From: an uncultured Acidobacteriota bacterium
Lineage (GTDB): Bacteria > Acidobacteriota > Vicinamibacteria > Vicinamibacterales > CAVVIG01
Direction: 5' to 3'
Assembly (NCBI GenBank): GCA_963745495.1
Contig: CAVUXJ010000004.1
Span: 299,985-363,984, forward strand
Length of the DNA stretch: 64,000 nucleotides
Shown: positions 10,064 through 30,178 of the stretch, piece by piece
Layout of the letters: each line of letters begins with the position of its first letter
Position numbering within the stretch: position 1 is the first letter of the stretch
Translations under genes and position numbers: made by a program
Notes under the pieces: model-generated
What the model was told of the DNA's origin: nothing
Databases searched by the model: none
Seen by the model: only the letters and a program-made list of their open reading frames with translations

Positions 10064-11415
10064 ATGGAGCAGTCGCCGACAAAGGACCGCGCCGTCAGCC
10101 TGGACGAGGCGATCTCGATCGCGATCCGGCTGCAGCAGAACGAGCAGTGGGCGGCTGCGGACGACATCTATCGCAGGATCCTCGAGGTCGCGCCCGACTA
10201 TCCCGACGCGCTGCACTTTTCCGGCGTGCTCGCGCATCAGCAGGGGCGAGAGCGACGAGGCCGTCGCGCTGATCGAGCGGAGCCTGGAGCTCGAGCCCGA
10301 TCGGGCGGACTGGCACAGCAATCTGGGCATCGTCCTGCGGGATCGCCTCAGGCTGGACGAGGCGATCGCCGCGTTTCAGCGCGCGATTGCGCTCGATCCG
10401 AATCACGCCAACGCGCACAGCAATCTCGGCGTCCTCCTGAGGGCGCAGGGCAAGCCGGTCGAAGCGGAAGCGGCCTATCGGGCCGCCATTCGCGTCAATC
10501 CCGAGCACTCGACGCGTACACCAACCTCGGCATCCTGCTGAACGGCCAGAAGCGGACGCACGAAGCGGTCGTCTGCTTCTGCAAGGTCATCACGCTCAGG
10601 CCGAAGCACCCCGAAGCGCGGCGACTGCTGGCGCTGGCGCACTGCACGCTCGGCGAGGTCGACAAGGCGGTGGAGATCTTCGAGGAATGGCTCAAGGAGG
10701 AGCCGGACCATCCGATCGCGCTGCACATGCTCGCGGCGTGCTCCGGCCGCGACGTCCCGGCGCGGGCGTCGGACGGGTTCGTCGAAAAGACCTTCGACAG
10801 CTTCGCCGCCAGCTTCGACTCCAAGCTCGCGAAGCTGTCGTACCGCGCCCCGGCGCTGGTCGCGGCGATGCTGGCGGACTCGGGTGTCGAGGCGTCGAAG
10901 AGCCTCGACGTGCTCGATGCCGGCTGCGGCACCGGGCTTGTGCGGACCGCTCGTCGCGCCGTATGCGCGCCGGCTGGTCGGGGTCGACCTGTCCGCGCGC
11001 ATGCTGGCTCAGGCCGAGGCGAGGAACGTCTACGACGAGCTGTTCAAGGTCGAGCTGACCGCCTACCTGCGCGACTACCCCGGGGCGTTCGACGTGATTG
11101 TGTCGGCCGACACCCTCGTGTATTTCGGACCGCTGGAGGACGTCGTCGCGGCGGCGGCGGACGCGCTGCGTCCCGGCGGACGGCTCATCTTCACCGTGGA
11201 GCAATTGATCGACGCCGGGTCCGATGCGGGCTATCGCCATCAGCCAGCACGGCCGCTACTGCCACTCGCGCGAGTACGTCGAGCGCGTGCTGGCGGACGC
11301 GAATCTGCGGCCGGAGATCGTGCCGGCGGAGCTGCGTCTCGAAGCCGGCGATCCGGTCGCGGGGCTGGTGGTGCGGGCGACGAAACCGACGGATGCAGGA
11401 ATGAACCATGCCTAG
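10064..11415 (+). CDS. TPR-repeat protein fused to a class I SAM-dependent methyltransferase domain, about 4 apparent frameshifts
   Basis: TPR units (WAAADDIYRRILEVAPDYPDALHFSGVLAHQQG, ADWHSNLGIVLRD..LDEAIAAFQRAIALDPNHANAHSNLGVLLRAQGK, AYTNLGILL). These are followed by SAM-binding motif I LDVLDAGCGTG and FDVIVSADTLVYFG, LRPGGRLIFTVE. Confidence 0.7.
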
Positions 11416-11420
11416 AGTCG

Positions 11421-13605: not shown

Positions 13606-15538
13606 AGGGTTTCACCCGCGACGACGTCATTGCGGCCTACCGTGCCGGAGCTCCACTCGATGGGCACATCCTGACCGATATTGTGCTGCGGAGCACCTCG
13701 CTACGCGGACTGAGGATGCGGGATACGGTCTGGCACCAGGTCGATCTGGCAGGGGCCGACCTGTCGGCGACGGATCTGTCTGGCGCTCGGTTTGTCGGGT
13801 GCAATCTACAGGGCGCGGTCCTTCAGCGTGCAACCCTGAAAGGGTGCCAGCTGCAGGAATGTGCGTGCGCCGCGACGAAATGGGAAGACGCGAGCCTCCG
13901 CGGTACGACGTTGGTCGGCTGTGCCTTCGACGATGCAGCTTTCACGAAGCTGCACCTCGAACAGTGTCATTGGTTGTCGTGCAGTTGTCAGGGTGCACAG
14001 TTCTCCGACAGCACGTTCATAGACGCCGTCTTCGAGGCGACGACGCTCGGTGACGTGCAGTTCGAACGATGCGCCATGCGTGGCGTGCGATTCGCGGACT
14101 GCGCGTTTCCCGGTACCTCGTTCGCAACGGTGCATCTGGACAGCAGTCGCTTCGACGGGTGCGCGTTCGACTCCGCCGGTTTTCGGCTTTGTACGGCGAC
14201 GAGCTGCGCGTTCGGAGACTGCCGGTTTGCCGAAGCCGATTTGTCAGGGCTTCACGGAGAGACTTCCACATTTTCCGGTTCCAGCTTCGTCGCCGTGAGA
14301 GCGCTGCCACAGGATCTCAGGGGAAACGTGTTTGGCGGCGTCGATCTCACCGGAGTTGATCTCTCAGGAAAAAACCTCGAGGGCGTGGATCTATCCGAGG
14401 CGGACCTGACGGAAGCGAGGCTCAACGGCGCGAACATGGAGGGGACCAACCTCTCGCCGCGTGCCTTGCTCGTGTTGACCTTTCGGATGCGAACTGCCGT
14501 CAGGCGATGATGGCAGACGCCAACCTGGATGGCGCGGTGCTCAGCAGCACGGACCTGAGCGGGGCGGTACTGGCGAACTCGACCCTTCCGATCTCCCGCC
14601 TCGCAGACGCGCTTCTGGTCGGAAGCGATCTCTCAGGAACTGATATGACGGGGGCGAAGCTGGTCGATCACGACCTGTCGGGGTGCCAGTTTGCCGGAGC
14701 CGTCGTGACGGACGCGGACCTGTCTGGAACCGACCTGAGGGATGCCGATTTCACAGACGCCAAGCTGCGAGGTGTGAATTGTTTCCGCGCGAAGTTTCGC
14801 GACGCGATCTTGTCCGGCGCAGATTGCACGAAGGCGAACTTTGCTGAGGCCCACTTCGCAAGCAGTTATCTGGACGGCGCTCTGTTAGCCGACGCCAACT
14901 TGCAGCAGGCGACGTTCGTGGAGACCGTCTTGGACGGTGTCGACCTGCGGACCGCCGCTTTTGGGAAGACCAGCTTTGAATCGTGCAGCGTGTCGGATGG
15001 CCGGCTGGATGGCGCGGATGTATCCGACTGCAGTTTTCTGGATAGTGATTTTTCGAGATGCAGCCTCGTCGGAGCTGTGCTGGACAGGGCGTCGTTGGCG
15101 GGTTGCGACTTCACGGGGGCTATGCTCACGGATGCGCACTTGAACAACGTGAAGGCACCCGCTGCGCGTTTCGTTGGTTGTCGGGCCGAACGTGCGATAT
15201 TTCGCCAGGCCGAGTTGCCGTCCGCGCAATTTATCGAGTCTCGTCTGGATGGAGCGGATTTTTCCGGCGCGGACCTTCGGCAAGCGATCTTCAGCGGAGC
15301 CGTCGCACGGCGCGCGCGATTCCGCGGATGTCGGCTCGACTACGCGCAAATCACGCATGCGAACATCGACCAGGCCGACTTCAGCGACGGTAATTTGTCG
15401 TGGACGGACTTCCACGGCACGCAGGGAACGCAGGTGAACTGGACCGGCGCCAGGCTCGATGATGTCCGCCCTGTCGATCCTGACCGCCTCGCAGCCGAGC
15501 AATGGAAAGCAGGAGAGCCCCCCACATGGAGTTCGTGA
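13602..15538 (+). CDS. Long pentapeptide-repeat protein. The ORF track splits it into 13602..14510 and 14507..15538; I read it as one gene with a 1-nt deletion near 14455.
   Basis: The start ATG overlaps the vgrG stop (ATGA). The A(D/N)LxG five-residue periodicity runs without a break across the junction only if the frame shifts at about 14455 (ANMEG TNLSA ACLAR VDLSD ANCRQ AMMAD ANLDG AVLSS). The frame-0 tail SPRALLVLTFRMRTAVRR loses the periodicity. Confidence 0.75.
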
Positions 15539-17740
15539 ATGAAAGTGGGCTGGAGGCGGCCTGGATCGTCGGCAAGATCAATCCACCGCGCTTCTCACTC
15601 ACTGCCATTGTCAAAGGTACGTTTCTCTTACGGCCTGGCGAAACGGCGATGCTCGCCGAAGAACAGCTCCCGCTGACGGGAGACAAGTTCGAGGCCGACG
15701 ACCTGTCCAAGCCTCTGCGCTACCCCGCGGATTTCGCGCCGTTCAAACCGCGTGCGGACGCGTTGCTCGTCGGGACCTGCCACGTGCCGGAAGGCAACCC
15801 CCTGACAGTCGCGCGAGTGACCTTTCAGATCGGGCCGCGGGCGAAGTCGCTAGTCGTGTACGGTGATCGTGAGTGGACGGCCGGGGGCCTCGCGACGGAT
15901 CCCGCGCCGTTTACTGTCCTTCCACTGTCGTGGGAACGAGCGTACGGCGGCGCGGCGTTCGAGCGAAACCCTTTGGGCAGGGGCTTCGAACTATCGGTTG
16001 GCGGGGCTGCAATCGACGGGCATCCACTACCCAACGTCGAATTCTCCGGCCGTCCATTGCGGTTGCCGGCCGACAGGGTGGAGCCTGCCGGATTCAATCC
16101 TATTCCTGACAGCTGGCCCCAGCGGGCGCAGAAGTTCGGAACCTTCGACGATCGATACCTGAAGGAGCGGTGGCCATGGGCACCCGGGAATATTGACTGG
16201 GGCTTTTTCAACGCTGCGCCGGTGGACCAGCAGATCGAAGGGTACCTCCGTGGCGATGAAGAGTTGTACATGGAGAATCTTCATCCGACGACGCAGCACT
16301 ACAGAAGCCGCCTGCCAGGGCTTCGAGTGCGCTGCTTCCTGAACGAGTTGGTTCGGGACCGCTACGGGTTGCGCGAAATCCCGATGCGCCTGGACACGTC
16401 GTGGGTCGACATGGATGCTGAGACGCTGGTGCTGGTCTGGCGCGGCGTTGTCGACCTGCGCAGCCGTAACCTCATCGGGATCGAGCATTTCTTCGTGCTC
16501 ACGGAGCCTCTGGAGCGGTTGCCTAACAACGTGAAGCAGTGTGCGCAGCTTCTGGAGGGGGCGCTCGCACGCCGCGAAATGCAGGACGACGAGCTCGAGG
16601 CAGAGGAACCGGAGGAGCTCGTGGACGCGGACGAAGCCCAGGACCAAGATGAAGAGCCCGCAGCGGAGTCGGCGTCTGCGTCACCCGCCGGTGATGGTGC
16701 AACCCTGAGCAGCGATGCGGCCTCTGACGCCGACCCTTCCAGCGATGCCGAGGCAAGTCTACCCGACGCAACTCCACCCGACGACGAGCCTTTGAACGCA
16801 ACGCCACTGGACGAAGCGCCGCTCACGGCGGAACGCGTGCGGGAACTGGCTGCCCAGCACGCGAGCTTCGCCGGCTGCGACCTGAGCGGTCTCGCGCTGG
16901 CCGGTGTCGACCTCAGAGGTCTGGATTTGCGGGAAGCGATACTGGTGAACGCGACCCTCGTGGGCGCGAATCTCTCCGGGGCCGACCTGACCGGATCTGT
17001 TCTCACCGGCGCGAACCTGCGAGGCGCCACCTGTACGGAAACAATCTTCGCCGCAGCCGACCTCACCGAAACGTGGTGGACCGGGGCCGATCTTTCCGCC
17101 GCGGTCCTCGTGGGCGCGAATCTCGACGAAGGCGAGGCTGCGGCTGGCCCGGATGGCTGGCGTGAAAGCGGCGGAAGCCGTCTTCGTCGAGGCGGACCTA
17201 TCGGACGCGATGTTAGTCGGCGCGAACCTCAGCGCGGCTGACTTGTCCGACGCCTGCCTCCACCGAACCGATTTTTCACGGGCCAATCTGTCGGAGGCTG
17301 CCCTCGAGAACGCGTGGGGCCGGCATGTCAGGGCATCGGCGCCACATTGATGAAGGTTCGCGGCGCAGAGGCGCTGATGTGCCAGGCCGACTTCCGGGAC
17401 AGCGCCGGCGACGAGTCGGTCTGGGAATCCGCTCAACTCTTCGGTGCGAGGTTCAGCGGCTCGAGACTGAATGGCGCGGAGTTCTCGGGTGCGTATCTCG
17501 CCAATACGCCCGTTCGACGCGTCGGAGTTGAAGGGCGCTCGTTTGAACGAAGCGAAACTCCGCGGTGCGCAGATGCGCCGGTGCAATTTTCTTGAGGCAT
17601 CGTTGGACGAAGCCGACCTGACGGACGCAACCTTCAGAGAGTCGAATCTTTTCGGAGCCACGCTCGTGGACGCGGTGCGCGACGGAACGCGCTTCACCGG
17701 TGCGAATCTGCGTCGGATCAAGAGCAGGGAGGACGCACAG
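15526..17740 (+). CDS. DUF2169-family protein with an acidic linker and a C-terminal pentapeptide-repeat domain, about 4 apparent frameshifts. The 3' end is not resolved.
   Basis: MEFVNESGLEAAWIVGKINPPRFSLTAIVKGTF...PLSWERAYGG...NPLG...WRGVVDL matches my memory of DUF2169. Next comes a D/E-rich linker, then repeats (CDLSGLALAGVDLRGLDLREAILVNATLVGANLSGADLTG...) followed through the frames of ORFs 15502, 17153, 17314 and 17471. Confidence 0.7.
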
Positions 17741-17744
17741 ACGA

Positions 17745-18290
17745 TCGTCGAGCCGTCAGGATACCTGGGGTCGGCCAGAGTGCTGGCGGCCGGCGACATC
17801 AGGTCATGTTCAGGTCGCGATGGCAGGCGACGGCGTCATGTGGGCGCGGATGGCGATGGCCGTGCCCTACAAGCCCGAGCCAGGAGACGAGGTGCTGGTG
17901 ATTTGCAACGAACCGCCCCATGCGTATGTCATTGGTGTTCTGCAGGGTCACGGCACAACGACGCTGCAGGTCCCCGCCGACCTGCGCTTCGAGGCCCCGC
18001 GAGGCGAGGTGCACATTCTCGCCGGCAAGGCCATCCAGATGCGGAGCGACAGTGGCGCTGGAGCTGGATGCGCCGCGCGGACGTTCCGATTCGTCTCGGC
18101 TGAACCTGCTGGTCACGACGCTCGTGCAGCGCCTGACCAACGCGTTCACCTGGGCAACAGGCCTCGTTCAGTGCAAGAGCGGGCGGTTGCGCGGATCGCC
18201 GAGGAAAGCTGGTTCGTGCGCGCGGGGCGCGCCCACGTGAGAACGACAGATAACATCCATATCACCGGAAAGACCCTTCACCTGGGGTGA
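17745..18290 (+). CDS. DUF3540-like protein, 2-3 apparent frameshifts; the start is uncertain
   Basis: YLGSARVLAAGD..VQVAMAGDGVMWARMAMAVPYKPEPGDEVLVICNEPPHAYVIGVLQG...HITGKTLHLG resembles the small proteins found between DUF2169 and DUF4150 genes in vgrG islands. The family assignment is from memory. Confidence 0.5.
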   Translation, partial: SSSRQDTWGRPECWRPATSGHVQVAMAGDGVMWARMAMAVPYKPEPGDEVLVICNEPPHAYVIGVLQGHGTTTLQVPADLRFEAPRGEVHILAGKAIQMRSDSGAGAGCAARTFRFVSAEPAGHDARAAPDQRVHLGNRPRSVQERAVARIAEESWFVRAGRAHVRTTDNIHITGKTLHLG

Positions 18291-18293
18291 GCC

Positions 18294-18672
18294 ATGTTCG
18301 AGGTTGCGAGCAACGTCTTCCGGCGGTCAGTGCCTTACCACGGGGCCGACCGATTTCTGCAAGACGCCGACTCCGGGCGGCCCGGTACCGATGCCGTACC
18401 CGAACATCGCGAAGACCGGCGACGGCCGGGGTTCGACGAAGGTGAAGGTCAAGTGCAAGCAGGCGCTGCGAAAGGGAGACAAGATCTTGATGTCTTCCGG
18501 CGACGAGGTGGGCGTGGCGATGGGCGCCGTTTCCAGCAAGATCAAGGGCCCCGCCGAGTTCATGTTGGGGTCGCCGTTCGTCAAGGTCGAGGGCAAGATG
18601 TGGGCCCATCACACGGTGCCGATGAAACAAAACGATGGGAATACGGTGGGCGTCCACATGGCCCCGTGTTGA
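18294..18672 (+). CDS. PAAR-like DUF4150 spike-tip protein. Either ATG 18294 plus a frameshift near 18322, or TTG 18304. The C-terminus may extend beyond 18672.
   Basis: GPTDFCKTPTPGGPVPMPYPNIAKTGDGRGSTKVKVKCKQALRKGDKILMSSGDEVGVAMGAVSSKIKGPAEFMLGSPFVKVEGKMWAHHTVPMKQNDGNTVG is the DUF4150 signature (CKTP.P.GP.P.PYPN ... SSGDE.G ... VK.EGK). Confidence 0.8.
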
Positions 18673-18702
18673 TGGTCGACCCTGACGTGAAACGGACCGA
18701 CA

Positions 18703-19314
18703 GTGGTCGTTAAAACGAAACCCGCTGCCAAGTCAGCCCGCGGATCGGCGGCTGCAAAGAAGGCGAAGGCTCGCAAGAAGAAAGCCGGAGGGGGGCGCCG
18801 GCCCAAGAAGCGCAAGGCTCCGAAGAAGCCGAGGAAGCAGAAGAAGAAGCACAAGTGTGGTGATAGCGGCAGCTATGGCCACATGAAAGATAACTACAAG
18901 GCCGATGGGAAAGAACGCGACCACGTTCCGTCGTGCGCAGCTCTCATCCACAATGCCAGGAACAATGTACTCCCCAGGGGCACAGAGCTCTGCCCCGCCC
19001 AGGAAAACGCCATCGTGCGAGCTGCGTCGGCCTGCGTCATTCCGAAACCCGTTCACGACAACTACAGTCCCACCCACTCGCACAAGAACAACGTAAAAGA
19101 CCCCCGTACAGGCAGGACACGAGCCCAAAGAGATGGCAACAACAAGAAGAAGGCCGCGAAACGAGATACGGACGCCATCAAGAAAGGCTTGAAAGACAAG
19201 AAGGCGAGCAAGCGGTGCCAGAAGAAGTACGCCGCCTGGGCCGAGAAAATCAAGGAACGGGATCAGAGCTGGTACGAAGGAATGATTAAGAAGGCGGTAA
19301 ACAAGGCAACGTGA
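18703..19314 (+). CDS. Highly basic (Lys/Arg-rich) putative T6SS toxin with an H-N-H/EndoVII-like motif. It may be the detached C-terminal domain of the PAAR-like protein.
   Basis: GTG start 31 nt after the PAAR stop, in the same frame. About 50 N-terminal residues are AKKAKARKKKAGGGRRPKKRKAPKKPRKQKKKHK-type. The core ERDHVPSCAALIHNARNN...ACVIPKPVHDNYSPTHSH resembles the HH-x2-P ... V-x-P-K-x-H ... H layout of colicin-type DNases. This is motif-level evidence only. Confidence 0.55.
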   Translation: MVVKTKPAAKSARGSAAAKKAKARKKKAGGGRRPKKRKAPKKPRKQKKKHKCGDSGSYGHMKDNYKADGKERDHVPSCAALIHNARNNVLPRGTELCPAQENAIVRAASACVIPKPVHDNYSPTHSHKNNVKDPRTGRTRAQRDGNNKKKAAKRDTDAIKKGLKDKKASKRCQKKYAAWAEKIKERDQSWYEGMIKKAVNKAT

Positions 19315-19338
19315 GGAATCGAGCGGAGCTGTGGTGAC

Positions 19339-19815
19339 ATGAGCGGCAATGAATTCATCACATTACTCGGATTGACCTGGGACGATGACGAGGTGCAGCG
19401 ATTTCTCGCGAAGTATGGCCTTGCGAAGAAGAAACCGAAGCTCAGCCCGTACAGCGGCGCCGGTTATCTTACGAACAAGAGGTTGGGCTTGGACATTACG
19501 TTCAGGGATGAGCAGGATGTCCCGGTGAAGTCAAAGGACTACGACGAGGGCACCCTTGTCCTGACGAACATCCGCATGTACGGTGAAGGAAGCACCCAGG
19601 GGTATGAACCGTTCGACGGCGAATTTCCCCATGGACTGAAAGGGAATTTCGGACTGAAGGAAGTCCAGGCTCGCCTCGGCAAACCCGCAGAGGCGAAGAA
19701 AGACGTCGCAATGGCGCGGTGGGACCTCAAGGGTCACGCGGTGTTCATCAACTTCGATAAGGACCATAAGCTGATCCGTTCGGCTGCGGTTCAGTTGCCG
19801 GTGGCCGCCAAGTAA
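19339..19815 (+). CDS. Hypothetical cytoplasmic protein, candidate immunity protein (module copy 1)
   Basis: Intact 158-aa ORF, 25 nt after the putative toxin, with no signal peptide. It shares a module with the next gene (FITLLGLTWDDDEVQRFL ... GLDITF ... GEFPHGLKGNFGLKEVQARLGKP ... HAVFINF). Confidence 0.6.
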   Translation: MSGNEFITLLGLTWDDDEVQRFLAKYGLAKKKPKLSPYSGAGYLTNKRLGLDITFRDEQDVPVKSKDYDEGTLVLTNIRMYGEGSTQGYEPFDGEFPHGLKGNFGLKEVQARLGKPAEAKKDVAMARWDLKGHAVFINFDKDHKLIRSAAVQLPVAAK

Positions 19816-19846
19816 GCCGTGTCATTCATCTTTGTGAAGGATTAGC

Positions 19847-20855
19847 GTGGCTGTGGATGCCGATCGACTTCTTCCTCTGTTGGGCCGCCGGAGCGACGAG
19901 CCGGAGGTGGAGGCCGCCTTCGTCGAATTGCGAACACGCCGGCGGCCGGAGCTGGATCCGGAGGATCCCGACGCGCTTCGCGACTGGGTCCTGGTGCGAC
20001 GGCAAGGGGTTGAGCTGGGGTTCATCGACGAGGCGTACTTCAACGCAGACAAGGAATGGAAACGTCGCCGGGAATTGACCGCGTTGCTCTTGTATCAGGT
20101 GTATTTCTACACGGCGGACGCGGAGCTACAAATAACGCAGTTCACGGGCAGGCTGCCATTTGGTCTCGAATGGTCGGACGATCGAAAGGAAGTGAGGCGG
20201 AAGCTTCAATCGTATGAACCGTTCCGTCGCTCGTACCGGCGGGATGCGTGGCAGCTGCCGCAGTTCGCGATATCGGTCACCTACAAGAACGCAAACCGGG
20301 CCGTGGACAGCGTCATATGTCAGAGCGACCTCAAGCCATGGCCTGAAGAGGGCCGGGCGCAACCTGCCCTGTCGGTAAGGGGACTGGGTCGAGATCCTGG
20401 GGCTTCCGGCAACCTCGGCTGACCTCCGCCGGCGGATTCAACCGCTCGACCTCGCTAACAGAATCGCGGACGATGAGGATGACGAGGAGGTCAACTTCCG
20501 ATACGAGTGCGGAGTGGAGCTGGTGTTTACGGAGGCGAGCAATTTGAAAGGTGCTTACCGGACGCGGCTGGGACGAAGAGTCCGGACACTCTCGTGCTTG
20601 GTGCCGTTCGGTTCTTTCGTTCGCGGGGCCTTGACGCCAGGCAATGGACTGGGGAGTTGCCGTTCGGGCTGGCGTTCGACGACAGCCAGCGCGCCGCGCA
20701 GGTCGAAGATCCGGCGCAAACCTGACGAGCATAAAGACGAGGGTTTGGACGGGTACCTCGAGTGGCGCTTTCCGGAGTACAGCCTTCATGTTCTATACGA
20801 CAACATGAAGAATCGCCTGCTTCGGATTACGATCATGGCTCCCGGGTTCGATTAG
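19847..20855 (+). CDS. Hypothetical protein made of two further copies of the same ~160-aa module, about 3 apparent frameshifts
   Basis: Copy 2: LLPLLGRRSDEPEVEAAF...GVELGF...FTGRLPFGLEWSDDRKEVRRKL...FAISVTY. Copy 3 runs through the frames of ORFs 20514 and 20507: WVEILGLPATSADLRR...GVELVF...WTGELPFGLAFDDSQRAAQV...YSLHVLYDNMKNRLLRITIMAP. Confidence 0.5.
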
Positions 20856-20872
20856 TTGCGTGGCCCGGACCT

Positions 20873-22292
20873 ATGAGGATCTCCGAGGCGCAATACTACG
20901 AGCTCATCGACGCAGTCGTTCGAGAGGGTGACCCCACACTCATCGTTGCACCTCTCTCGAGCACACCGGCCGAGGTGCCGGCCGGCTGGGCGCAACTCCT
21001 GACTTCTCCCGATCCCCGCGCCGCCATCGCCACACTGTGGCGGCCGGTGGCGGATCGTGTCCCTCGTATCTACCGCGGCTTGCAGGAGCGGCTCCACGGC
21101 GTCGGCTTGTTGCGTACCGACGAAATACCAGCAAGCCTGCTCTACTTCTTCAGCGACGGCGACGAATGGATTCCTTTCCGGGGACGTCCGCCGCTCGAGG
21201 AACGCGCGCTCCGACGGAGCCCCCTGCCCAAGGAATTTCTCGAGTTCTACCGAATCCATGACGGCTGGGTTCACCACCATTCCGAAGACAGCGGGCCGCT
21301 GCCGAGCGCTGGATGGTCTCCCGTGTCGACGTTGTGGAGCGAGGTCGTCTGGAAAGTGCCCCCGGGCGAAGAATCGTACGAGACGGCGATCGCCGTGTAC
21401 CGCGACAGCGACGATTTCGCGCTCGCGTACGACACGTCCGCTTCGCCCGCGTTGCCCTTGCGATGTTATGGCGACGGCACCGTGGACGTGCTGTTGGACA
21501 TGTGGGCGGCCGTCGACCGTGAGATTGGTGAGCTTCTCGAAGAGCTCGACTGGAGCGCGACTGCGAGCGGACGACGCGGCCGCTTTCGCGCGGATGCGTC
21601 GAGCACACATGTCTCTCGCTACCAGGAACTGATCGCACGGGCGGCCGAGTGTCACACGCTTGCCGCGCACCTGGGTGGCGGTAGCGCCGACGAGCAAGCT
21701 GCTGATCTTCTCCTGAATTGCGCGCGCCTTGAGAGGGAAGGCGCCGGCGACCGCGACAAGATCGTCGGTTACTACGGTCAGGCGCTGCGGCACTGGTGCG
21801 CGAGCATCGATCTGAGGTGGCGATGCAGGCCCGGAAGAGGTGCTGGACTGGTTCGGCGTCGCTCACGCATTGGGCGATGCACCAACCGCCCACTTCATAG
21901 CGGCTCTACCGACCTCGATCTGGGCCGACGACTCACCAGAGGCATTACAGGCCCGCACGCTGTTCTGTCTGTACCTCGGGGATGTCGAGAACGCGTCAGC
22001 GTTTGTCGAGGAGCTCCTGGGTGTGACCTTCGACGGCGAGTCGGCGCCTGAACCAGAGGCCGAGATCACCGCCTCGCTGCTCCAGGGGCTGAGCCAGAAG
22101 GATGCTGCGGCATACGCGCGGTGGCGGAAGCGAGCGGTTGACGAGCTCTGTGAGGGCAGCACGAATCAGAGGGCATTGCTTCCCTGGACTCTGAGACTGC
22201 GCGGCTTTGATGCAGTGGCTTCAAGACTCGGAATCGAAGGTCGTTCCTCGTCTCATGGGATTCCCACGAAACTGGCTCCACCTGATTCGTAA
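20873..22292 (+). CDS. SUKH (SMI1/KNR4)-domain protein with a helical C-terminal extension, one apparent frameshift near 21820
   Basis: LPKEFLEFYRIHDGWVHH ... AIAVYRDSDDFALAYD ... DMWAAVDREIGELLEEL is SMI1/KNR4-like. The C-terminal part is ORF 21840..22292. Confidence 0.6.
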
Positions 22293-22317
22293 CATTGCCC
22301 AAAACGGGGGTATCGCG

Positions 22318-22944
22318 ATGGGAAATGGCAAGTCACCGTCCGGCATCGACCTCGACACGCCGGGCCCGATCGACGACGGGACATTGGCGCGTATCGGGTC
22401 GCCTGAGCCGGGGCCGATCGGGCTCGACTCGAAAGGCGGCGACGCGAAGCAGAGCCAGCCGAGCATGGCCGATCGGATCGTGAGCTACGCGCGCCGGAAG
22501 CGCGGCGAGCGCGTCGGCGACGGCGAATGCTACACGCTGGTCAATCGCGCGCTGAGCGCCGCGAACGCCAAGACCGCCAGGGACTACGGCCCGGTCTCGC
22601 CTGACGCAGATTACATCTGGGGAACATCGGTCGCACTGACCGAGCTGCAGCCGGGCGACGTGATTCAGTTCCGCGACTACACGTTCAAGCGGGTGGACGT
22701 CACCGACGATGACTCTGGCACGACGACTGACGAGCAGGAGGGAGACCGCCCGCACCACACCGCCATCGTCCAGAGCGTGGACGGCAACGGCGCGGTCACG
22801 GTCTGGGAGCAGAACGCCCCCGATGGCTCTCCGGTCACGCGCACGCAACTGTTCTTCACCTCCCGAAGGACCACGAGCGGCAACCGCACCACGACGATCA
22901 CGGTGCGGGGAACGTTCTGGTTTTACCGTCCCGAGGCTCGCTGA
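22318..22944 (+). CDS. CHAP/NlpC-P60-type papain-fold hydrolase without a signal peptide; candidate T6SS amidase-type effector
   Basis: Start MGNGKSPSG preceded by a GGGGG RBS-like run. Candidate Cys nucleophile in VGDGECYTLVNRAL. Candidate His in GDVIQFRD...RPHHTAIVQSVDGNGAVTVWEQN, the CHAP-like GHVAIV...EQN pattern. The first ~50 aa are Gly/Pro/Asp-rich. Confidence 0.7.
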   Translation: MGNGKSPSGIDLDTPGPIDDGTLARIGSPEPGPIGLDSKGGDAKQSQPSMADRIVSYARRKRGERVGDGECYTLVNRALSAANAKTARDYGPVSPDADYIWGTSVALTELQPGDVIQFRDYTFKRVDVTDDDSGTTTDEQEGDRPHHTAIVQSVDGNGAVTVWEQNAPDGSPVTRTQLFFTSRRTTSGNRTTTITVRGTFWFYRPEAR

Positions 22945-23010
22945 CCACGCGGGCTGGAGGTCGAGCGAAGAAGCCCATTGATGATGGGCGGCGGCAGGCA
23001 ATCGATCGGG

Positions 23011-23797
23011 CTAGACGAGCTCAGGCGCCTGCTGACGTGCAATCTCGAGCAGGCGGCCCTTCAAGGGATCGCCCAGCGCGGCGATGTCCTCGACCTTGAC
23101 GACCTCCTCGAAGACGTCCATCCCGGTCAACTCGGCGCTCTCGATCATGACCGCGTCGGAGGGACGCTCCGTCGTGATCCCGATTCCAATGCGGGTGATC
23201 GGGAGCTCGCCGAACTGCGGGGACTTGCTGGTGGTCAACGGAAAGTGCAGCGCCTCGAACACCTGCATCAGCCCCGGCTCGCTCTTGGTGGCCAGATGCA
23301 TGACCAGATAGTTGAGCACGAACCGCTGAAGCTCCTCGACCGATCGCGCCTTGGCGTCCAGCAGCTCCTGCAGACGGGTGGGCGGAAAGTCGGTGTAGGT
23401 CAGCACCCACGTCAGCGGGCATCGCACCTTGATCCTTCTGCGTGTCCGCGCCCGACTGCGCGACATGGTAGTAGTCGAGCGGCGTGATCTCGAGGCCGAC
23501 GCTGGTAAAGCTCAACGGAGGGGCCAGCTCGCGCGCGAGGTTGTATGGTCTGGCCGTCGCCACCGTTTCGTAGAGCGCCTGCAGATCGCCGAAGGCCTTG
23601 TCCGATTTGCGGCTCGGTTCCTTCGGGCCGCCTTGCACGTAGTCTCCGAGCACCGCCTTCGGCCGCAAGAGCGGTGTCAGCGTCTTCAGGTACTCCGTCA
23701 TCTGCACTCGCACGGCGTCGGTGATGGCGCGAGTCAGTTTCCTGAGCACCAGGAGCGACTGCACGTTGTCGCGTCCGTTCATGTGTGAAGGCTCCAT
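23011..23797 (-). CDS. Hypothetical protein of unrecognised family, one apparent frameshift near 23430
   Basis: ORFs 23021..23827 (N-terminal part MEPSHMNGRDNVQSLLVLRKLTRAITDAV...LEITPLDYYHVAQSG) and 23011..23466 (C-terminal part KVRCPLTWVLTYTDFPPTRLQELL...LLEIARQQ) join into about 260 aa. Divergent from the kinase gene. Confidence 0.5.
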
Positions 23798-24005
23798 AGG
23801 GGGTAGCGTGCCACCCGGGGAGGGCACCGTGCTTCAAAGACCCGGCACAGACTATCGGCCGGCTGGCAGGCTTGTCAACGCACGCAGCCGGAACCGGAGG
23901 ACCGGCTCCGTGCGGCGGCCTCCCAGTGTCGCGACTGTAACGCGGGCGGCCTTTGGCGCACTATATTCAGATCCCGACGTGCTAGGATTCTTGAAATTCC
24001 TGTCA

Positions 24006-26445
24006 ATGCTGCCCCTTCCGTCCCGGATCAGCCGTTACGACATCAAGAGCCTCATCGGGACCGGGGGCATGGGCACCCTGTATCTTGCCAGGGACACCAA
24101 CCCGAACACGAACCGGCTCGTCGCCCTCAAGCTCCTCAATGCCAACCTGGACTCCGGCGACCTTCGAGAGCGATTCGCCCGTGAGGCCCGCGCCCTTGCC
24201 GCGCTGAACCACCCCAACATCGTCAACATCTACGACTCGGGCGAGTTCCAGGGTTCGCCGTTCATCGTGATGGAGTACGTCCGGGGCGAGACGCTCTCAG
24301 AGAAGATCAAGCGAAAGGCTCCGCTGTCGCTCGGACAGAAGCTCAAGCTGATGGGAGAGCTGTGCGCGGGACTCGGACATGCCCACGAGGCGGGCATGAT
24401 CCACCGCGACATCAAGCCGGCCAATCTGATGGTCGATCAGCACGGCCGGCTGAAGGTTCTCGACTTCGGCATCGCCCGCGTCTCGGAAGGCAGCTTTACG
24501 CGAGCGGGCCTGCAGGTCACTCAGTTCAACGTGCGGATCGGCACGCCCGGTTACATGTCTCCGGAACAGATAGAGACCGGCGAAATCGACCGGCGCAGCG
24601 ACATTTTTGCCGTTGGCGCGGTGTTCTACGAGCTGCTCTCGAACAGTGAAGCGTTTTCGGGCGCCAGCACGCGACAGATCGAAAACAAGGTACTGCAGGC
24701 GCAGCCTGCTCCTCTCACGTCGCTCGTTCCCGGCCTCGATCCAGAGATTGCCGCCATCGTCGCCCGCGCGCTGGAGAAAGATCCCGCCAGACGGTATCAG
24801 GATGCCGCGGCGATGGAGGAAGCGCTCGAGCAGCAACTGTGGCGTCTGGGCCGCCAGGACACTCCTGCACCGACTGAGCGTCCGACGCCACCGCCGCAGA
24901 GCGCCGGACGCAAGTCCCGAGACTCACGAGCGGACGTGGCGTTTCAGCGCTCGGCTGCATTCTATCGAGAGGGGGCGGTCGAGGCCGCCCGGCGGTTCGC
25001 GATTGAAGCGCTCGCCGAAGATCCGAATCACGAAGGCGCTTACACGTTCCTTGAACGGCTTGAACGCCAGGAACCGGATCGGTGGCCGATCCCGCGACCG
25101 TCGCTCCCCCCGCCGGCGCCGGGGACCGAGCTCAGAACAGCTATGGAGCCGCCCGCGCGGCAGCTGACGCCGGTGCCGCCAACCATCGTCAGCCCGCGCA
25201 GGGATTCTGGCGGCGTCTTCTTCGGCGAAGCGATCGCGGGAACCAAGGCGATGGCGACGAGCTATGGAGCCGCCACCGCAAGGCCGCGCTGGTCGCGGCC
25301 GTCGTCGCCGTCGCCGCCGGCATTGCGCTCGTCGTCATGCGCCTGCTCGGTGGCCCGGTGGTTTCCGGCCAGTTGCTCACCATTACGAAGCCGACCGGGG
25401 GGACGATTACCAGCCGCGGCATCAACTGCGGCACGACGGGGTCTGACTGCTCGACCACGCTTCCGAGTGGTGAGCCCGTCGAGCTCCAGACCCACGCTGA
25501 TGCGGGATTCATGTTCACCGGCTACACCGGCGACTGTCTCTCGACCGGCCGAACCCTCATGACATCGCCGAGAACCTGCGGCGGAACGTTTGCTCCCCTT
25601 CCTGATGTGCCTGCACAGGTGCCTCGTCTGCTGACCGTCACTCGGCCGAAGGGCGGCACGATTTTGAGTGCCGGCATTCAGTGCGGCACGCTCGGCTCTG
25701 ATTGTTCCGCGACCCACCCGGACGGAGAACAGGTCACGCTGTACGCGCGGGCAGACGAGGGCTTCACCTTCCAGGGCTTCACGGGGGAATGCGGCGCGAA
25801 GGGCCAGCTGCTCATGAGCGCTCCCCGCACGTGCGGCGCGACGTTCGCCCCCCGAGCCGTCCTCGACGCCGCCCAACAGCGCCCCGCAAGTCCCGCAGCT
25901 CCGGGTCCGGGGCGGCCGCCATCCGGAGGAGGGCGGGACGACGCGAGTCCGCCCCCTCCGGAGAACTTTACGTCTGCTCCCGCGCCTCCTTCCGAGCCGG
26001 CTGGCTCGGGCTGCCGCTGCCGGCGGCGGTTTTGAACGACCAACTAGGTTTCCCCGGTGCGACGCCTGCGCCGGCACCCCCGATTGCGCCGGAGGTCGTC
26101 GTGAAGACCAACGTCGACAGACTTCTCAAGGAGTACTGCTCCGCCTATGAGCAGCTCGACGTGCCGGGTATCATGCGAGTGTTCCCGACGGCGCCAGCCG
26201 CCGGGCTGAGGGACCAGTTCAGACAGTACAAGACGGCGGGGTGCGCGTTGATGGGGGCTCCGGAGTTCGTCTCGATGGACCCGCAGGCTGGGATTGCGAC
26301 GGTTGAAGTTGGCGTCAAGCTGACGGCGGAACTGAAGGTCGGGAGCGCGAAACCGCAGGAGACCATCGCCGTCGTGAGGGTGGTCCGGCCGGAGCCGAGA
26401 GGCCTGTGGCATATCGATAGCATGAGGTTTCGGCCTAAGAAATAG
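24006..26445 (+). CDS. Membrane Ser/Thr protein kinase with an extracytoplasmic tandem InlB-B-repeat-like pair and a C-terminal NTF2/SnoaL-like domain, 2 apparent frameshifts (about 25230 and 25990)
   Basis: Hanks kinase motifs GTGGMGTLYLA, VALK, HRDIKPANLMV, DFGIA, GTPGYMSPE. TM segment ALVAAVVAVAAGIALVVM. Two repeats LT(I/V)T(K/R)P.GGTI.S.GI.CG..GSDCS. C-terminal LLKEYCSAYEQLDVPGIMRVFP. Confidence 0.85.
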
Positions 26446-26523
26446 ACTTTTCGATACCTTCCCGTTGGGCTACCCCAACTATGGTAAGGTCGGCACCCCC
26501 GGACTCGCTGGCAGGAGGATAGC

Positions 26524-27610
26524 GTGCCGACGCGCGGACGCTTCGCAGACAAGCTCAAACGCTCGGCCCATCTCGGCATCGCCCTCCTTCAGGCCACAGC
26601 CAGCCGTCCCGCCGCACCGCTCAAGTTGAACTTCTGCCTGACGTACTGGTGTCAGTACAAGTGCAAGACGTGCAACATCTGGCAGCGCAAGCCCGAAGAC
26701 GAACTGACAACCGATGAAGTGATGGCGATCGTCCGCGAGAATCCGAACATCACGTGGGCGGACCTCACCGGAGGGGAGATTTTCCTCAGACCGGACATCG
26801 ACGACATTCTCGAGGCTGTCGTCACCGGCTGGCGGCGGCTTGCGTTTCTGCATTTTCCGACCAACGGGTTTCTCACCGATCGCATCGTGGCGGGCGTCGA
26901 GCGGATCGCGGGCCGGGGCCCGGCGAACACCGTCATCACGGTCAGCCTGGACGGCGACGAGCAGACCAACGACGAGATCCGTGGAATCAAGGGAGGTTTC
27001 AGGCGTCAGATCGAGACGTTCAACGCGCTCCGGCGTATTCCGGGAGTAGCCACGGTCTTCGGGGTGACGGTGTCGGCCTACAATCTCGGCCGATTCACTC
27101 AGACCTTCGACGCATGCGCCAGCGAATGTCCGGGTCTCACCATCGATGACGTCCATCTGAATATCGCGCAGACGTCCGGGCACTACTACGGCAACGACGG
27201 ATTGGACGCGATGCGGCCGGATCCGGTGAAGGTTCGCGCGGAGCTGAACGAGTATCGCCGGTTGAGAGGCCGCCCGCGCTCAGCCAAGAGGGCTTCTCGA
27301 GAACGTCTATCTCGGATATCTGGACAACTTCCTCCTCACCGGGAAGACGCCCATGCCGTGCCACTCGCTCCGCGCGAGCTGCTTCATCGACCCGTGGGGA
27401 GTGGTCTATCCCTGCATCACCTATTCAAGGCCAATCGGCCGGCTGCGAGACACGGGCATGCGTCTGGATCCGATCTGGAATGCCGTCGAGACCACGGACG
27501 TGCAGCGCGAGATCTGGAAGGGACAGTGCCCCCAGTGCTGGACTGCGTGCGAGGCCTACCAGAGCATCCTCGGCAATGTCCTCGCGGGGCGCTGCCCGAG
27601 CCAGCGCCTG
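26524..27610 (+). CDS. Radical SAM protein with a Cys-rich SPASM-like C-terminal region, 1-2 apparent frameshifts. The 3' boundary with the next gene is unresolved.
   Basis: GTG start after GGAGGA. CxxxCxxC cluster (WCQYKCKTCNIW), GGEIFLRPD, then after a frame change near 27290 MPCHSLRASCFIDPWGVVYPC...KGQCPQCWTACEAY. Confidence 0.7.
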
Positions 27611-28405
27611 ATGGGCCCACGCCGACTCGCGCGGGATCCGCGACCAGCCGAGGCCTGTCCGGTGAACGTCGTCTGCTTCACGGACTCGGTGATTCGGGCC
27701 CACCTGGACAAGGCTGTGGCCCATCATGTGGCGACCGACGTGTCGGTGGTGATCGCCGCGAAGCAGGAGGCTCCGAGCATCGCCGACATCATCGACCGGA
27801 CGCGCCGCTATGCCACCGAGATTGTCGTCGTCGATGGACACTCGACCGACGGCACGCCCGAGCTCGCGCAGCGAAGCGGCGCGCGCGTGCTCGTGGACGG
27901 CGGTCGCGGAAAAGGCGAGGCCATCCGTCGCGCCATCCCGCACATCCGGACACCCATCACCGTCTTCATGGATGCGGACGGATCGCACGACCCTGAAGAC
28001 ATCCCGCTGCTGGTCGAGCCGATTCTTGCCGGCCGGGCCGACCACGTCTCCGCGTCGAGACTCCGAGGGGGATCGAGCGAGTTGCACGGCGGGTTCGACG
28101 AGTTCTTCCGCCTGACCGGCAGCTCGTTCATCACCGCGTGCATCAACTGGCGCTTCAACTGCCGATTGAGCGAAAGCCAGAACGGCTTCCGCGCGATCCG
28201 GACGTCCGTTCTCCGTCAGCTCGACCTGCGCGAGGATCTCACCACGATCGAGCAGGAGATGATCATCAAGACGCTGCGCCGCGGCTTTCGGATGACCGAA
28301 GTGCCCAGCCACGAGCATCCCCGGCGTCACGGATCGTCTCACATTCGCGTCTGGCGCTGTGCTCCGCGCTATGTGCTGTCGCTGGTCAAATATCTGTTCT
28401 TCTGA
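27611..28405 (+). CDS. Family 2 glycosyltransferase (polyprenol-phosphate sugar synthase-like); the start is uncertain
   Basis: VSVVIAAKQEAPSIADIIDRT...EIVVVDGHSTDGTPELA...FMDADGSHDP (DxD-type)...SQNGFRAIR. It is in the same frame as the end of the radical SAM ORF with no stop between them, so a fusion or an unseen indel is possible. Confidence 0.7.
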   Translation: MGPRRLARDPRPAEACPVNVVCFTDSVIRAHLDKAVAHHVATDVSVVIAAKQEAPSIADIIDRTRRYATEIVVVDGHSTDGTPELAQRSGARVLVDGGRGKGEAIRRAIPHIRTPITVFMDADGSHDPEDIPLLVEPILAGRADHVSASRLRGGSSELHGGFDEFFRLTGSSFITACINWRFNCRLSESQNGFRAIRTSVLRQLDLREDLTTIEQEMIIKTLRRGFRMTEVPSHEHPRRHGSSHIRVWRCAPRYVLSLVKYLFF

Positions 28406-28435
28406 CGTCCTGTTCCATCGCGAAGCGTATATACC

Positions 28436-30178
28436 GTGAACGTACTTGGCATCTGGGACGGCCACGATTCTGGCGCGGCGCTTCTGCAGGACGGCCGTCT
28501 GCGATTTGCCGTGAACGAGGAGCGGTTGACCCGTCGAAAGCTCGAGGTGCGCTTTCCAACGCGGTCCATCGAGGCGTGCCTCGCGTACGCAGCTCTCGAG
28601 CCTGGGCAGATTGACGTCGTCGCGGCATCGACCGCCGATCCAGCCAAGGCGCTCGGCCGCTGGTGGCCCGGAAGCAAGGAACGGTACTACGCGGTGCGTC
28701 GCCGCAAGGCCCGACCCGGGCCCCTTTCGGTCCTCACTCGCGCGCTGAAGTACCGCATGACCGAATGGTCGCCGGGGCCTGTTTCGAAGACCCTCAGCCT
28801 TGTCGCGCTTCGCCGGACTCTCCGTTCGCACGCCCTTGGTGACGCCGAGCTCAGGCTGTTCGATCACCACGAGGCCCATGCGGCAGGCGCCGCATGGGCC
28901 GCAGACTTCGCGCCATGCGCCGTGGTGACGATCGATGGGTTGGGCGACGGACTCTCCGCCACCATTTCGTCGTTTCACGCCGGTCGCTTGACCCGCGTGG
29001 CCCGGTCACCTGCCCGCAGCTCGCTCGGCGTCTTCTTCGAGCATGTGACGAACCTCCTCAACATGCGCGAGCTGGAAGACGAGGGCAAAGTCATGGCGCT
29101 CGCGGACTATGCCGCGCCGATTGCCGACGAGGACAACCCGCTCTTGTCGTGTGTGCGCGTTCGCGACGGCGTCATCGCCACCGAACGGGCCGGCCATGCG
29201 CTCAGACGGGAGCTGGCGCGAATCCACTGGCGATATTCCAATGAGCAGTTCGCCTATCTCGCGCAGCGCGTCGTGGAACAGACATGCGCTGCGCTCGCGC
29301 GGGACGCCGTTCGTCTCACGGGCCTTCGGCGGGTCGCGTTGGCCGGCGGGGTGGTGTCCAATGTGAAGGCCACGCGGCGTATCCGCCTGCTGCCGGAAGT
29401 GGAGGACGTCTACGTCTTCCCGCACATGGGCGACGGCGGCCTTGCGGTCGGGGCCGCGATTCTCGCCGCGGCGCAGTCGGGAGAGCCGATCGACGTCGAC
29501 TTCGGTCGCCTCGACCTGGGACCTGATTACGACACGACGGCGATTCAGGCCGCGCTCCGCAATGCCGGTTTCGCGACCGCGACGATCGCGAACCTCGCCG
29601 GTCGCGTGGCCGACATGCTCGAAGAAGGGCGCATCGTGATGTGGTTTCAAGGACGCATGGAGTATGGCCCGCGCGCGCTGGGCCATCGCAGCGTCCTCGC
29701 GCGTCCGGATCGTCCCGAGTTGCGAGATCGCCTGAATCTCGCGCTCAAGCGGCGTGTCTGGTACCAGCCCTTCTGCCCGAGCATGCTCGAGAGCGAGGGC
29801 CGACGGGTGCTCGCCGACTGGACCGGCGGTCGCAACGACTCGATGACGATGGCGTACGAGGTGTCGAGCCGTTACCGCAGTCACCTGTCGGGGGTGATGA
29901 GTATCGACGGCACATGCCGCCCACAGCTTGTGGCAGACGATGCGTCCGGGGAGTTTGCAGAACTGCTGCGGGAAGCGCGCCGGCGGTGGGGCATCGGCGC
30001 CGTGCTCAACACCAGCTTCAACATCCACGGCGAGCCGCTCGTCTGCTCTCCTGTGGAGGCGATCGATGTGTTCGTCCGATCGGGTGCGGACGCACTGGCC
30101 ATCGGCCCATTTCTCGTCGAGCGTTCGGTCGCGGCTTCTACGGTAGCCTCGGGCGTCCCGCTCGGAGCGCGCGCGTGA
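28436..30178 (+). CDS. Carbamoyltransferase (NodU/CmcH family)
   Basis: Intact 580-aa ORF MNVLGIWDGHDSGAALLQDGRLRFAVNEERLTRRK...HHEAHAAGA...GLGDGLS...FNIHGEPLV. Confidence 0.9.
   Translation: MNVLGIWDGHDSGAALLQDGRLRFAVNEERLTRRKLEVRFPTRSIEACLAYAALEPGQIDVVAASTADPAKALGRWWPGSKERYYAVRRRKARPGPLSVLTRALKYRMTEWSPGPVSKTLSLVALRRTLRSHALGDAELRLFDHHEAHAAGAAWAADFAPCAVVTIDGLGDGLSATISSFHAGRLTRVARSPARSSLGVFFEHVTNLLNMRELEDEGKVMALADYAAPIADEDNPLLSCVRVRDGVIATERAGHALRRELARIHWRYSNEQFAYLAQRVVEQTCAALARDAVRLTGLRRVALAGGVVSNVKATRRIRLLPEVEDVYVFPHMGDGGLAVGAAILAAAQSGEPIDVDFGRLDLGPDYDTTAIQAALRNAGFATATIANLAGRVADMLEEGRIVMWFQGRMEYGPRALGHRSVLARPDRPELRDRLNLALKRRVWYQPFCPSMLESEGRRVLADWTGGRNDSMTMAYEVSSRYRSHLSGVMSIDGTCRPQLVADDASGEFAELLREARRRWGIGAVLNTSFNIHGEPLVCSPVEAIDVFVRSGADALAIGPFLVERSVAASTVASGVPLGARA

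Follow-up and report, generated by a model that had tools for sequence, protein, structure and literature searches.

A papain-fold hydrolase of the PF25459 family, linked to type VI secretion gene clusters, as a candidate cargo enzyme in an acidobacterial genome

The DNA analyzed here is a stretch of 64,000 nucleotides (the window) from an uncultured bacterium of the Acidobacteriota (contig CAVUXJ010000004.1). Its G+C content is about 65%, and its nearest named relatives are Acidobacteriota, chiefly metagenome-assembled genomes (MAGs) of Vicinamibacterales and Luteitalea. Profile matches identified the main gene cluster of a type VI secretion system (T6SS), with TssB/C, Hcp, ImpE, TssF/TssG and ClpV; TssC is encoded at positions 337-1854 and Hcp at 1892-2389. 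The spike and cargo genes comprise VgrG (about 11.4-13.6 kb, spread over four or more frame segments), pentapeptide-repeat proteins, DUF2169, DUF3540 and a Tox-PAAR-like protein (18304-18672, plus strand). The last co-directional gene of the vgrG operon (22318-22944, plus strand) starts 25 bp behind the preceding gene, is preceded by a ribosome-binding-like GGGGG run, and encodes a PF25459/CHAP-like papain-fold cysteine hydrolase of 208 residues. We propose, with moderate confidence, that this hydrolase is a cargo enzyme exported by the T6SS and that it belongs to a family of the CHAP superfamily (PF25459) not described as a T6SS effector.

A preliminary description of this locus, made from the sequence alone, had read a papain-fold Cys...His arrangement in the hydrolase, and both the open reading frame (ORF) and the motifs were confirmed. 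We compared it with 30 close relatives (alignment A2) and with the wider family (alignment A7). The catalytic Cys71 of the GDGEC motif (codon 22528-22530) and the His146-His147 pair of HHTAIV with the catalytic His (22753-22758) are invariant in both alignments, and when the family profile is aligned to PlyCA, Cys71 and His147 fall on its catalytic Cys333 and His420. The third polar member of the triad falls within Glu164-Gln165-Asn166 of VWEQN (22807-22815), which is invariant in A2; across A7, Q165 and N166 are nearly invariant (at least 90%) and E164 is variable. The stretches GDGEC71YTLV, H146-H147-TAIV and VWE164-Q-N166 are unchanged in the 30 close relatives, together with G113-D114, a 'GD' strand motif that is typical of the NlpC/P60-CHAP group (PMC10318531). 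The Pfam search that the preliminary description had proposed gave a match of 57 bits to PF25459 (AIM3_BBC1_C, the AIM3/BBC1 cysteine-proteinase fold), whose cut-off is 27, and a score of 22.7 bits for CHAP (PF05257), just under its cut-off of 26; some relatives passed the CHAP cut-off (L036, 28.9 bits; P0277, 37.6 bits; P0230, 30.7 bits), and NCBIfam returned no match for the hydrolase.

The AlphaFold2 (AF2) model of the hydrolase has a mean confidence (pLDDT) of 80.6, with values above 88 over most of residues 50-208 and below 50 for residues 1-42. Its best Foldseek matches in the PDB are CHAP lysins, namely Ly7917 (5d74/5d76; E 0.01, probability 0.99-1.0) and the S. aureus entry 5t1q, with TM-scores of only about 0.35. 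The residue order, Cys, then His, then the polar residue, is the canonical, non-permuted one. The protein contains an inserted long beta-hairpin and, at the C-terminus, further strands that end in GxxxxYRP; a cell-wall-binding domain is absent. Judged by sequence and predicted structure, the hydrolase belongs with the papain-fold Cys/His enzymes of the CHAP/NlpC-P60 group, with the predicted triad intact on a CHAP-like fold.

More than 772 close homologues of the hydrolase were found, all of 196-221 residues, and an exhaustive profile search yielded 1633 clusters at 50% identity, of which 752 had E <= 1e-10. The family is abundant in soil Acidobacteriota and is annotated only as 'hypothetical protein' or under the name of the fungal domain. 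A literature search returned no paper on bacterial PF25459 members or on comparable acidobacterial T6SS effectors, and the one annotated plasmid homologue, a 'hypothetical protein' on a Bosea plasmid, lies outside any T6SS context. Three architectures occur: a leader-bearing form in Acidobacteriota and in beta- and gamma-proteobacterial MAGs; a signal-less bare domain of 150-190 residues; and a form with a Sec signal or lipobox in Singulisphaera and in MAGs of Planctomycetota, Verrucomicrobiota, Armatimonadota and Spirochaetota.

The gene neighborhoods (loci numbered with an L) link the family to T6SS genes. The hydrolase gene stands last in vgrG operons of Acidobacteriota and of beta- and gamma-proteobacterial MAGs, and in more than 40 loci it lies behind cassettes unrelated to that of the window. 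The genes found ahead of it elsewhere include a TIGR02270 gene with a gene for a 54-residue two-helix membrane protein, or an Rhs gene with a true SUKH gene, and it also directly follows VgrG or ClpV. It begins 14 bp behind vgrG in L098 and directly behind a VgrG match in L068, and it precedes vgrG in L065 and L066. An apparent VgrG-hydrolase fusion in L098 was rejected as an out-of-frame artefact, since vgrG has its stop codon there and the hydrolase starts in a different frame. In L084 the hydrolase gene and the clpV stop codon overlap, and in L102 the gene begins 20 bp past that codon; L081 and L135 have it between tagF-pppA and fha, and in L027 and L030 it comes immediately ahead of fha-tssJ-tssK. 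In the T6SSiii cluster of a member of the Chitinophagaceae (Bacteroidota; L038), the order is TssD, VgrG, PAAR, a gene with no known function, the hydrolase, ClpV and TssC, and in L110 the hydrolase is near TssC, PAAR, TssD and VgrG. An orphan island (L057/L058) consists of TssD, the hydrolase, a 285-residue coiled-coil protein with an N-terminal membrane anchor, and a transposase. The available flanks of the hydrolase in L078, L093, L112 and L113 hold no T6SS gene. These results show that the hydrolase family is linked to the T6SS in three phyla, Acidobacteriota, Proteobacteria and Bacteroidota.

The first 48 residues of the hydrolase (22318-22461) form a leader with the pattern MGxG...(I/V)DDGTxAR..SPxPGP(I/V)GL(D/Q)xKxG, in which M1, G2, G4, D19, G21, T22, P29 and P31 are invariant among the 30 close relatives. 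It is rich in Gly and Pro, has no hydrophobic signal-like segment and is predicted to be disordered by the low pLDDT of residues 1-42, so that the earlier reading of a disordered N-terminus free of a secretion signal held. The leader motif is also present in proteobacterial loci, including loci that lack the convergent neighbor described below (conv256); since many leader-bearing, T6SS-linked hydrolases are without conv256, the leader does not depend on it. In the homologues of Planctomycetota, Verrucomicrobiota, Armatimonadota and Spirochaetota, a Sec signal peptide or lipobox takes the place of the leader, and such a signal was found in about 10 of 19 distant genome homologues and in several of 150 cluster representatives. 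N-myristoylation of the MGNGKS N-terminus was considered and rejected: PROSITE pattern PS00008 fits none of the 30 close relatives, in which Pro7 is conserved, and only 5 of the 42 cluster representatives (of 150) that begin with MG; the proteobacterial versions begin with MAG or MVG. We also rejected the leader as a motif common to other cargo proteins, as a single other case turned up. This is a truncated gene behind the 472-residue homologue of L009 (11531-11755), whose Pro/Gly-rich N-terminus contains PGPLGLN and PGSTGLN and resembles the PGPIGLD of the hydrolase; the contig ends ahead of any catalytic domain. The PGPLGLN of this gene hints that the leader may be modular.

Downstream of the hydrolase lies a gene on the minus strand for a protein of 256 residues (conv256; 23011-23782, with a frame change within 23417-23466), which is a steady neighbor of the hydrolase in the lineage of the window. 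As had been described earlier, it is convergent and signal-less; its sequence points to a cytoplasmic protein, and its intact homologues have 256 residues. A sigma-70-like promoter match stands upstream of it (23851-23878, minus strand; TTGACA, 16 nt, GATAGT), judged by the consensus only. The stretch between the stop codons of the convergent genes contains a short inverted repeat, GCCCAT-TGATG-ATGGGC (22973-22989), without a T-run; it was read directly from the sequence, was not called by the terminator scan, and may be the stem of a bidirectional terminator. Searches of Pfam, NCBIfam and PDB profiles with conv256 gave no match, and at least 1256 homologues of uniform length were found.

Of 22 acidobacterial-type loci, 19 have conv256 next to the hydrolase, as do two of eight proteobacterial loci, and the pair also occurs in eight metagenomic loci. 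When loci were retrieved from conv256, the hydrolase was 5-110 bp away in all three. The two genes are neighbors in convergent, divergent (L016, L017 and L029) and same-strand (L128) arrangements. Conv256 is absent from most proteobacterial and Bacteroidota loci and from many metagenomic loci in which the T6SS-linked hydrolase keeps its leader. Other genes stand between the two in L005, L010 and L031, so the gap between hydrolase and conv256 is a second insertion site. The inserted genes encode proteins of 280 and 138 residues in L005 (10777-12072; a peptidoglycan-binding-like motif in the 138-residue protein was read by eye), a protein of 354 residues in L010 (8656-9720), and in L031 (9879-10700) a protein of 273 residues with Cys...HHTVVVV motifs that could be another papain-like enzyme.

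The gene upstream of the hydrolase (20873-22292, plus strand) had been described as encoding a SUKH (SMI1/KNR4) protein. Its span of 1420 nucleotides is not divisible by three, and two overlapping ORFs lie in it in different frames (20762/20873-22051 and 21840-22292), so that it is not a single ORF in the window. The preliminary description had joined the two without saying so, and this proved right: an extra A at 21815 (...ATC GAT CTG [A] GGT GGC...), probably an assembly error, breaks the gene into 20873-21814 and 21816-22292, and the joined translation of 472 residues is covered over 96-100% by 13 of 15 homologues (454-479 residues). The other two are the window's own gene call of 392 residues and shorter sequences. 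The 472-residue gene is thus real and encodes one protein, with the split likely due to the assembly. Its family is rare, with 15 matches among 5.8 billion proteins.

The SUKH label did not hold at curated thresholds. Neither Pfam nor NCBIfam gave a match to the window protein at E < 0.1, and four of 14 relatives touched SMI1_KNR4 with scores of 12.6-15.1 bits, below its cut-off of 25.4; in all four, residues of about 110-155 aligned to profile positions 11-57. The SUKH-like alpha/beta domain would span about residues 110-225, with the motif LPKEFLEFYRIHDGW. Of five AF2 models, four had a pLDDT of 56-60; in the best one (85.7), an alpha/beta region at the N-terminus is followed by another alpha/beta domain (residues 110-223), whose elements come in an order compatible with SUKH. 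The C-terminal half of this model is helical and TPR-like, and in Foldseek it matched TPR-type proteins such as Sec17/alpha-SNAP and LGN. No SUKH entry of the PDB was found by Foldseek or by profile searches, whether these used the whole protein or only the domain. An hhalign comparison of the family with three true SUKH_1/SUKH_6 proteins from sister loci covered 23 columns, that is, the motif only (LPxxFxxFxxxHxGW; probability 61%, pairwise E 7.9e-5). The 472-residue protein is therefore, on weak evidence, SUKH-like at the level of the motif. It resembles SUKH immunity proteins in this N-terminal motif, which corresponds to their LPxxYxxFLxxxNG-type motif, and in its place at the end of a toxin/immunity cassette, like the true SUKH genes behind Rhs in sister loci, and its predicted alpha/beta topology may be compatible with theirs. 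It differs from them in that it is three to four times as long, has an additional domain at the N-terminus and a C-terminal half of TPR type, and lies below the curated thresholds of all SUKH profiles, SMI1_KNR4 and SUKH_3-6.

The synteny of this gene decides whether it forms a pair with the hydrolase. It belongs to the same cassette as the genes before it (18304-20855, plus strand): the Tox-PAAR-like gene, a putative toxin of 203 residues (18703-19314) whose N-terminal 50 residues are extremely basic, a protein of 158 residues (19339-19815), and a frameshifted gene for about 333 residues (19847-20855), a tandem of two halves that resemble the 154-residue protein; all are on the plus strand. 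Neither Pfam nor NCBIfam assigned the 185-, 154- and 333-residue cassette proteins to a known family. The whole cassette, including the 472-residue gene, was found in five loci only, namely the window, L007, L008, L009 and L016, and in all five the 472-residue gene ends the series VgrG, pentapeptide, DUF2169-pentapeptide, DUF3540, PAAR-like, basic protein of about 185 residues, protein of about 154 residues and protein of about 333 residues. A transposase follows it in L008 and a different gene in L009, with no hydrolase behind either, and conv256 separates it from the hydrolase in L016. The hydrolase, in turn, is nearly always found without the 472-residue gene, and by tblastn the genes that precede it in L001, L005 and L006 have no counterpart in the window.

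The preliminary description had taken the two genes as an effector/immunity pair in atypical order, with a 472-residue SUKH-type protein, encoded upstream, as immunity for the hydrolase. The co-directional arrangement at 25 bp in the window and L007 and the SUKH-like motif speak for this model, but its family has 15 members against more than 772 close members and 1633 clusters for the hydrolase, each gene mostly occurs without the other, and the same slot in sister loci is filled by true SUKH proteins right behind Rhs toxins. The pairing is refuted by this synteny, and we regard the immunity model as highly improbable. The 472-residue protein is the terminal gene product of the preceding PAAR-like/toxin cassette, probably with an immunity-type role there. 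Among the options offered earlier, an immunity for another toxin fits the synteny best, although the SUKH part of that proposal holds at motif level only. The presence of a SUKH-like gene beside the hydrolase is explained by an exchange of cassettes at the 3' border of the vgrG island. In L054 (8706-9482), L055 (8362-8988) and L056 (9283-9732), Rhs toxins followed by true SMI1_KNR4/SUKH_6 immunity proteins lie upstream of the hydrolase, and this slot also holds several orphan genes of 150-165 residues and an Ntox46 gene. The region upstream of the hydrolase is a hot spot for toxin/immunity cassettes.

Alignment with intact homologues revealed at least 11 frame changes within positions 10800-26500, in the T6SS and flanking genes, over about 15 kb. 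The pentapeptide gene, the DUF2169 gene, 19847-20855, 20873-22292 and 23011-23782 are each split over two frames, and a kinase gene over three. Such a density indicates that the frame changes are likely assembly errors rather than biology; the source is probably an error-prone long-read assembly, which makes any 'pseudogene' reading in the window unsafe. A second, shorter Hcp-like ORF of 130 residues just after the full Hcp (2597-2989; matching Pfam T6SS_HCP positions 40-129) may be either a gene fragment or a further gene split by a frame change.

Several neighboring genes recur in related clusters. A gene with TPR and class-I methyltransferase domains directly upstream of vgrG (10884-11400) is kept in Acidobacteriota and proteobacterial relatives (L001, 1-1082; L005, L007, L021 and L140). 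Downstream of the kinase, positions 26524-30178 hold a frameshifted radical-SAM/SPASM gene, a family-2 glycosyltransferase gene and a carbamoyltransferase gene, a group kept beside the T6SS cluster in L001 and L054-L056; the domain calls were taken from the homologous loci L054-L056, and only the carbamoyltransferase (28436-30124) matched directly in the window. Near the T6SS cluster of L001, a protein of 490 residues with FHA, Yop-YscD_cpl and SLT (lytic transglycosylase) domains (20306-20627, the gene extending beyond the locus) may be an enzyme that opens peptidoglycan for assembly of the T6SS machine. L001 also encodes a beta-ketoacyl-synthase-like protein of 353 residues (7468-8529), with homologues in L005, L010, L014 and others, which is a conserved member of the DUF2169/PAAR-like/TIGR02270 T6SS module; it scored 249 bits against PRK06147, under the model cut-off of 342, and we know of no T6SS role for it.

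Type VI amidase effectors are textbook toxin/antidote pairs. Like Tae1-Tae4 (Tse1, Tae4), the hydrolase is a small, signal-less papain-fold Cys/His enzyme in T6SS loci, of a size compatible with cargo and with the canonical Cys-then-His order. It gave no match to Pfam Tae4, and no Tse1, Tae3 or Tae4 chain was among its PDB profile matches at E <= 10 or its top 50 Foldseek matches. Unlike those effectors, which have periplasmic Tai immunity proteins, it carries a conserved leader of 48 residues, has no periplasmic immunity gene beside it in the window, and is a conserved operon-closing gene rather than a strain-variable one. The CHAP peptidoglycan hydrolases (PlyC/PlyCA, 4F88; Ly7917, 5D74; staphylococcal CHAP amidases) are its best structural matches; the Cys and His motifs align (GDGQC and GHTGI...VTVLEQN in PlyCA), and the hydrolase has the 'GD' strand motif typical of the NlpC/P60-CHAP group. 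It differs from them in its score below the CHAP gathering threshold and its separate model PF25459, in the low TM-score, the hairpin insertion, the extra strands and the lack of a cell-wall-binding domain, and in its linkage to the T6SS rather than to phage or housekeeping functions.

TseH and Tox-Act1 are permuted NlpC/P60 T6SS effectors with phospholipase activity (PMC12994826). They belong to the same superfamily as the hydrolase, but have a permuted core (His before Cys), lipid substrates and membrane-associated immunity, and the canonical residue order of the hydrolase argues against a phospholipase activity of this kind. In the H3-T6SS of P. aeruginosa, Hcp3 carries the small cysteine proteases Tce1 and Tce2; neither of them has an immunity gene or shows toxicity in E. 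coli, and toxicity in yeast is known for Tce2 (PMC13323088). As small cysteine hydrolases encoded with a T6SS without nearby immunity genes, one of them with an extended N-terminus, they are a working model for an immunity-less cargo enzyme in Hcp; they differ from the hydrolase in their TcdB-CPD-like fold with His before Cys, no sequence relationship was detected, and Hcp binding was shown for Tce1 and Tce2, whereas a cargo role of the hydrolase is a proposal. The best curated model for the hydrolase and all its relatives is that of the C-terminal domain of AIM3/BBC1, fungal actin-patch proteins; there the domain ends large eukaryotic proteins, whereas the bacterial proteins stand alone and keep the catalytic residues. 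The PF25459 match suggests an old transfer between bacteria and fungi.

In the mechanism that we favor, the hydrolase would be exported as T6SS cargo, its Gly/Pro leader would load it on or into the spike or tube, and its catalytic domain would cut an amide or peptide bond outside the cytoplasm of the target, most likely in peptidoglycan, as other CHAP enzymes do. The producer could be protected by conv256, acting as an inhibitor or chaperone before export, by a target chemistry that it lacks, or by an immunity gene elsewhere. Export is supported by the relatives outside T6SS contexts, which carry Sec signals or lipoboxes where the leader stands. Several points weigh against this proposal. The loading role of the leader is pure conjecture, and no fusion of the hydrolase to VgrG, PAAR, Rhs or another delivery domain occurs among the representatives checked. 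The literature search found no secretion, toxicity or substrate data for any family member. No periplasmic immunity gene is adjacent in the window, where the 472-residue protein and conv256 are both signal-less, as had been described before, or in most T6SS-linked loci, which is atypical for an effector that targets peptidoglycan; many other T6SS-linked members have no adjacent partner at all, and the membrane-anchored protein of 285 residues in L058 is a possible exception. The hydrolase is also conserved, single-copy and often placed among core or regulatory T6SS genes, which fits an accessory protein as well. Overall, we consider the T6SS-effector idea a reasonable one.

If the hydrolase acted in the cytoplasm of its target and conv256 were its cytoplasmic immunity, the two would form an effector/immunity module of a new type. 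The adjacency of the two genes, which survives three arrangements and is recovered from either side, speaks for this reading. Conv256 is moreover signal-less, has its own promoter-like site and has conserved residues that look structural rather than catalytic, and papain-like T6SS toxins that act in the cytoplasm exist, for example Cpe1 (PMC12136450). This explanation is nonetheless unlikely, because conv256 is missing from so many T6SS-linked loci that keep the hydrolase with its leader, genes are inserted between the two, the Sec-exported distant homologues imply a substrate outside the cytoplasm, and all conv256 loci share one cluster backbone (kinase, carbamoyltransferase), so that inherited synteny may explain the linkage. 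The hydrolase could instead act within the producer as an accessory (Tag-type) enzyme of the T6SS, perhaps one that processes a component of the system, and would then not be a secreted toxin. Its conservation as a single copy of fixed length without an immunity gene would agree with this, as would its places behind clpV and between tagF-pppA and fha and its rate of change, which is about that of flanking core genes (57-82% identity, compared with 60-93% for conv256 and 68-80% for the carbamoyltransferase in the same loci). Its position in the clusters varies widely, however, and covers both T6SSi and T6SSiii, the orphan hcp-hydrolase island adjoins a transposase, leader-bearing copies lie away from any T6SS gene in the available sequence of L093 and L112, and the homologues with Sec signals imply work outside the cytoplasm, which leaves an accessory role rather improbable.

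Comparably improbable, and slightly more so, is an immunity-less effector whose target is absent from the producer, be it a eukaryote (fungi, protists) or a foreign cell-wall chemistry. Most T6SS-linked hydrolase loci offer no adjacent immunity candidate, Tce1 and Tce2 set a precedent (PMC13323088), and the Pfam model is common to the family and to the C-terminal domain of fungal AIM3 and BBC1. Set against these points, the MGxG N-terminus does not fit N-myristoylation, the nearest solved folds are CHAP lysins that cleave peptidoglycan, and the membrane-anchored downstream gene of the orphan TssD island looks like an immunity gene. A combined picture, in which hydrolase and conv256 make up a new T6SS module of a leader-loaded CHAP-fold enzyme with a cytoplasmic or eukaryotic, non-peptidoglycan target and a cytoplasmic partner that restrains or chaperones it, appears doubtful to us. 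If it were true, it would break the rule of periplasmic immunity for papain-fold amidase effectors and would tie a bacterial weapon family to the fungal AIM3/BBC1 domain.

Our preferred reading remains that of an exported cargo enzyme, and the hydrolase gene probably encodes a secreted weapon whose family has so far not been described in that role. The point of interest is a large, unannotated family of the CHAP superfamily that is linked to the T6SS and combines a conserved leader and a lineage-specific cytoplasmic partner with, usually, no periplasmic immunity. For annotation, the locus teaches that no pairing should be read into a SUKH-like gene beside a hydrolase where a vgrG island has its 3' edge, since the shuffling of cassettes brings the two together. 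If the hydrolase is a secreted effector, its family would be the fifth or a later canonical papain-fold effector family, its conserved N-terminal leader would be a directly testable candidate for a loading signal, and the question of how producers escape self-damage would be reopened.

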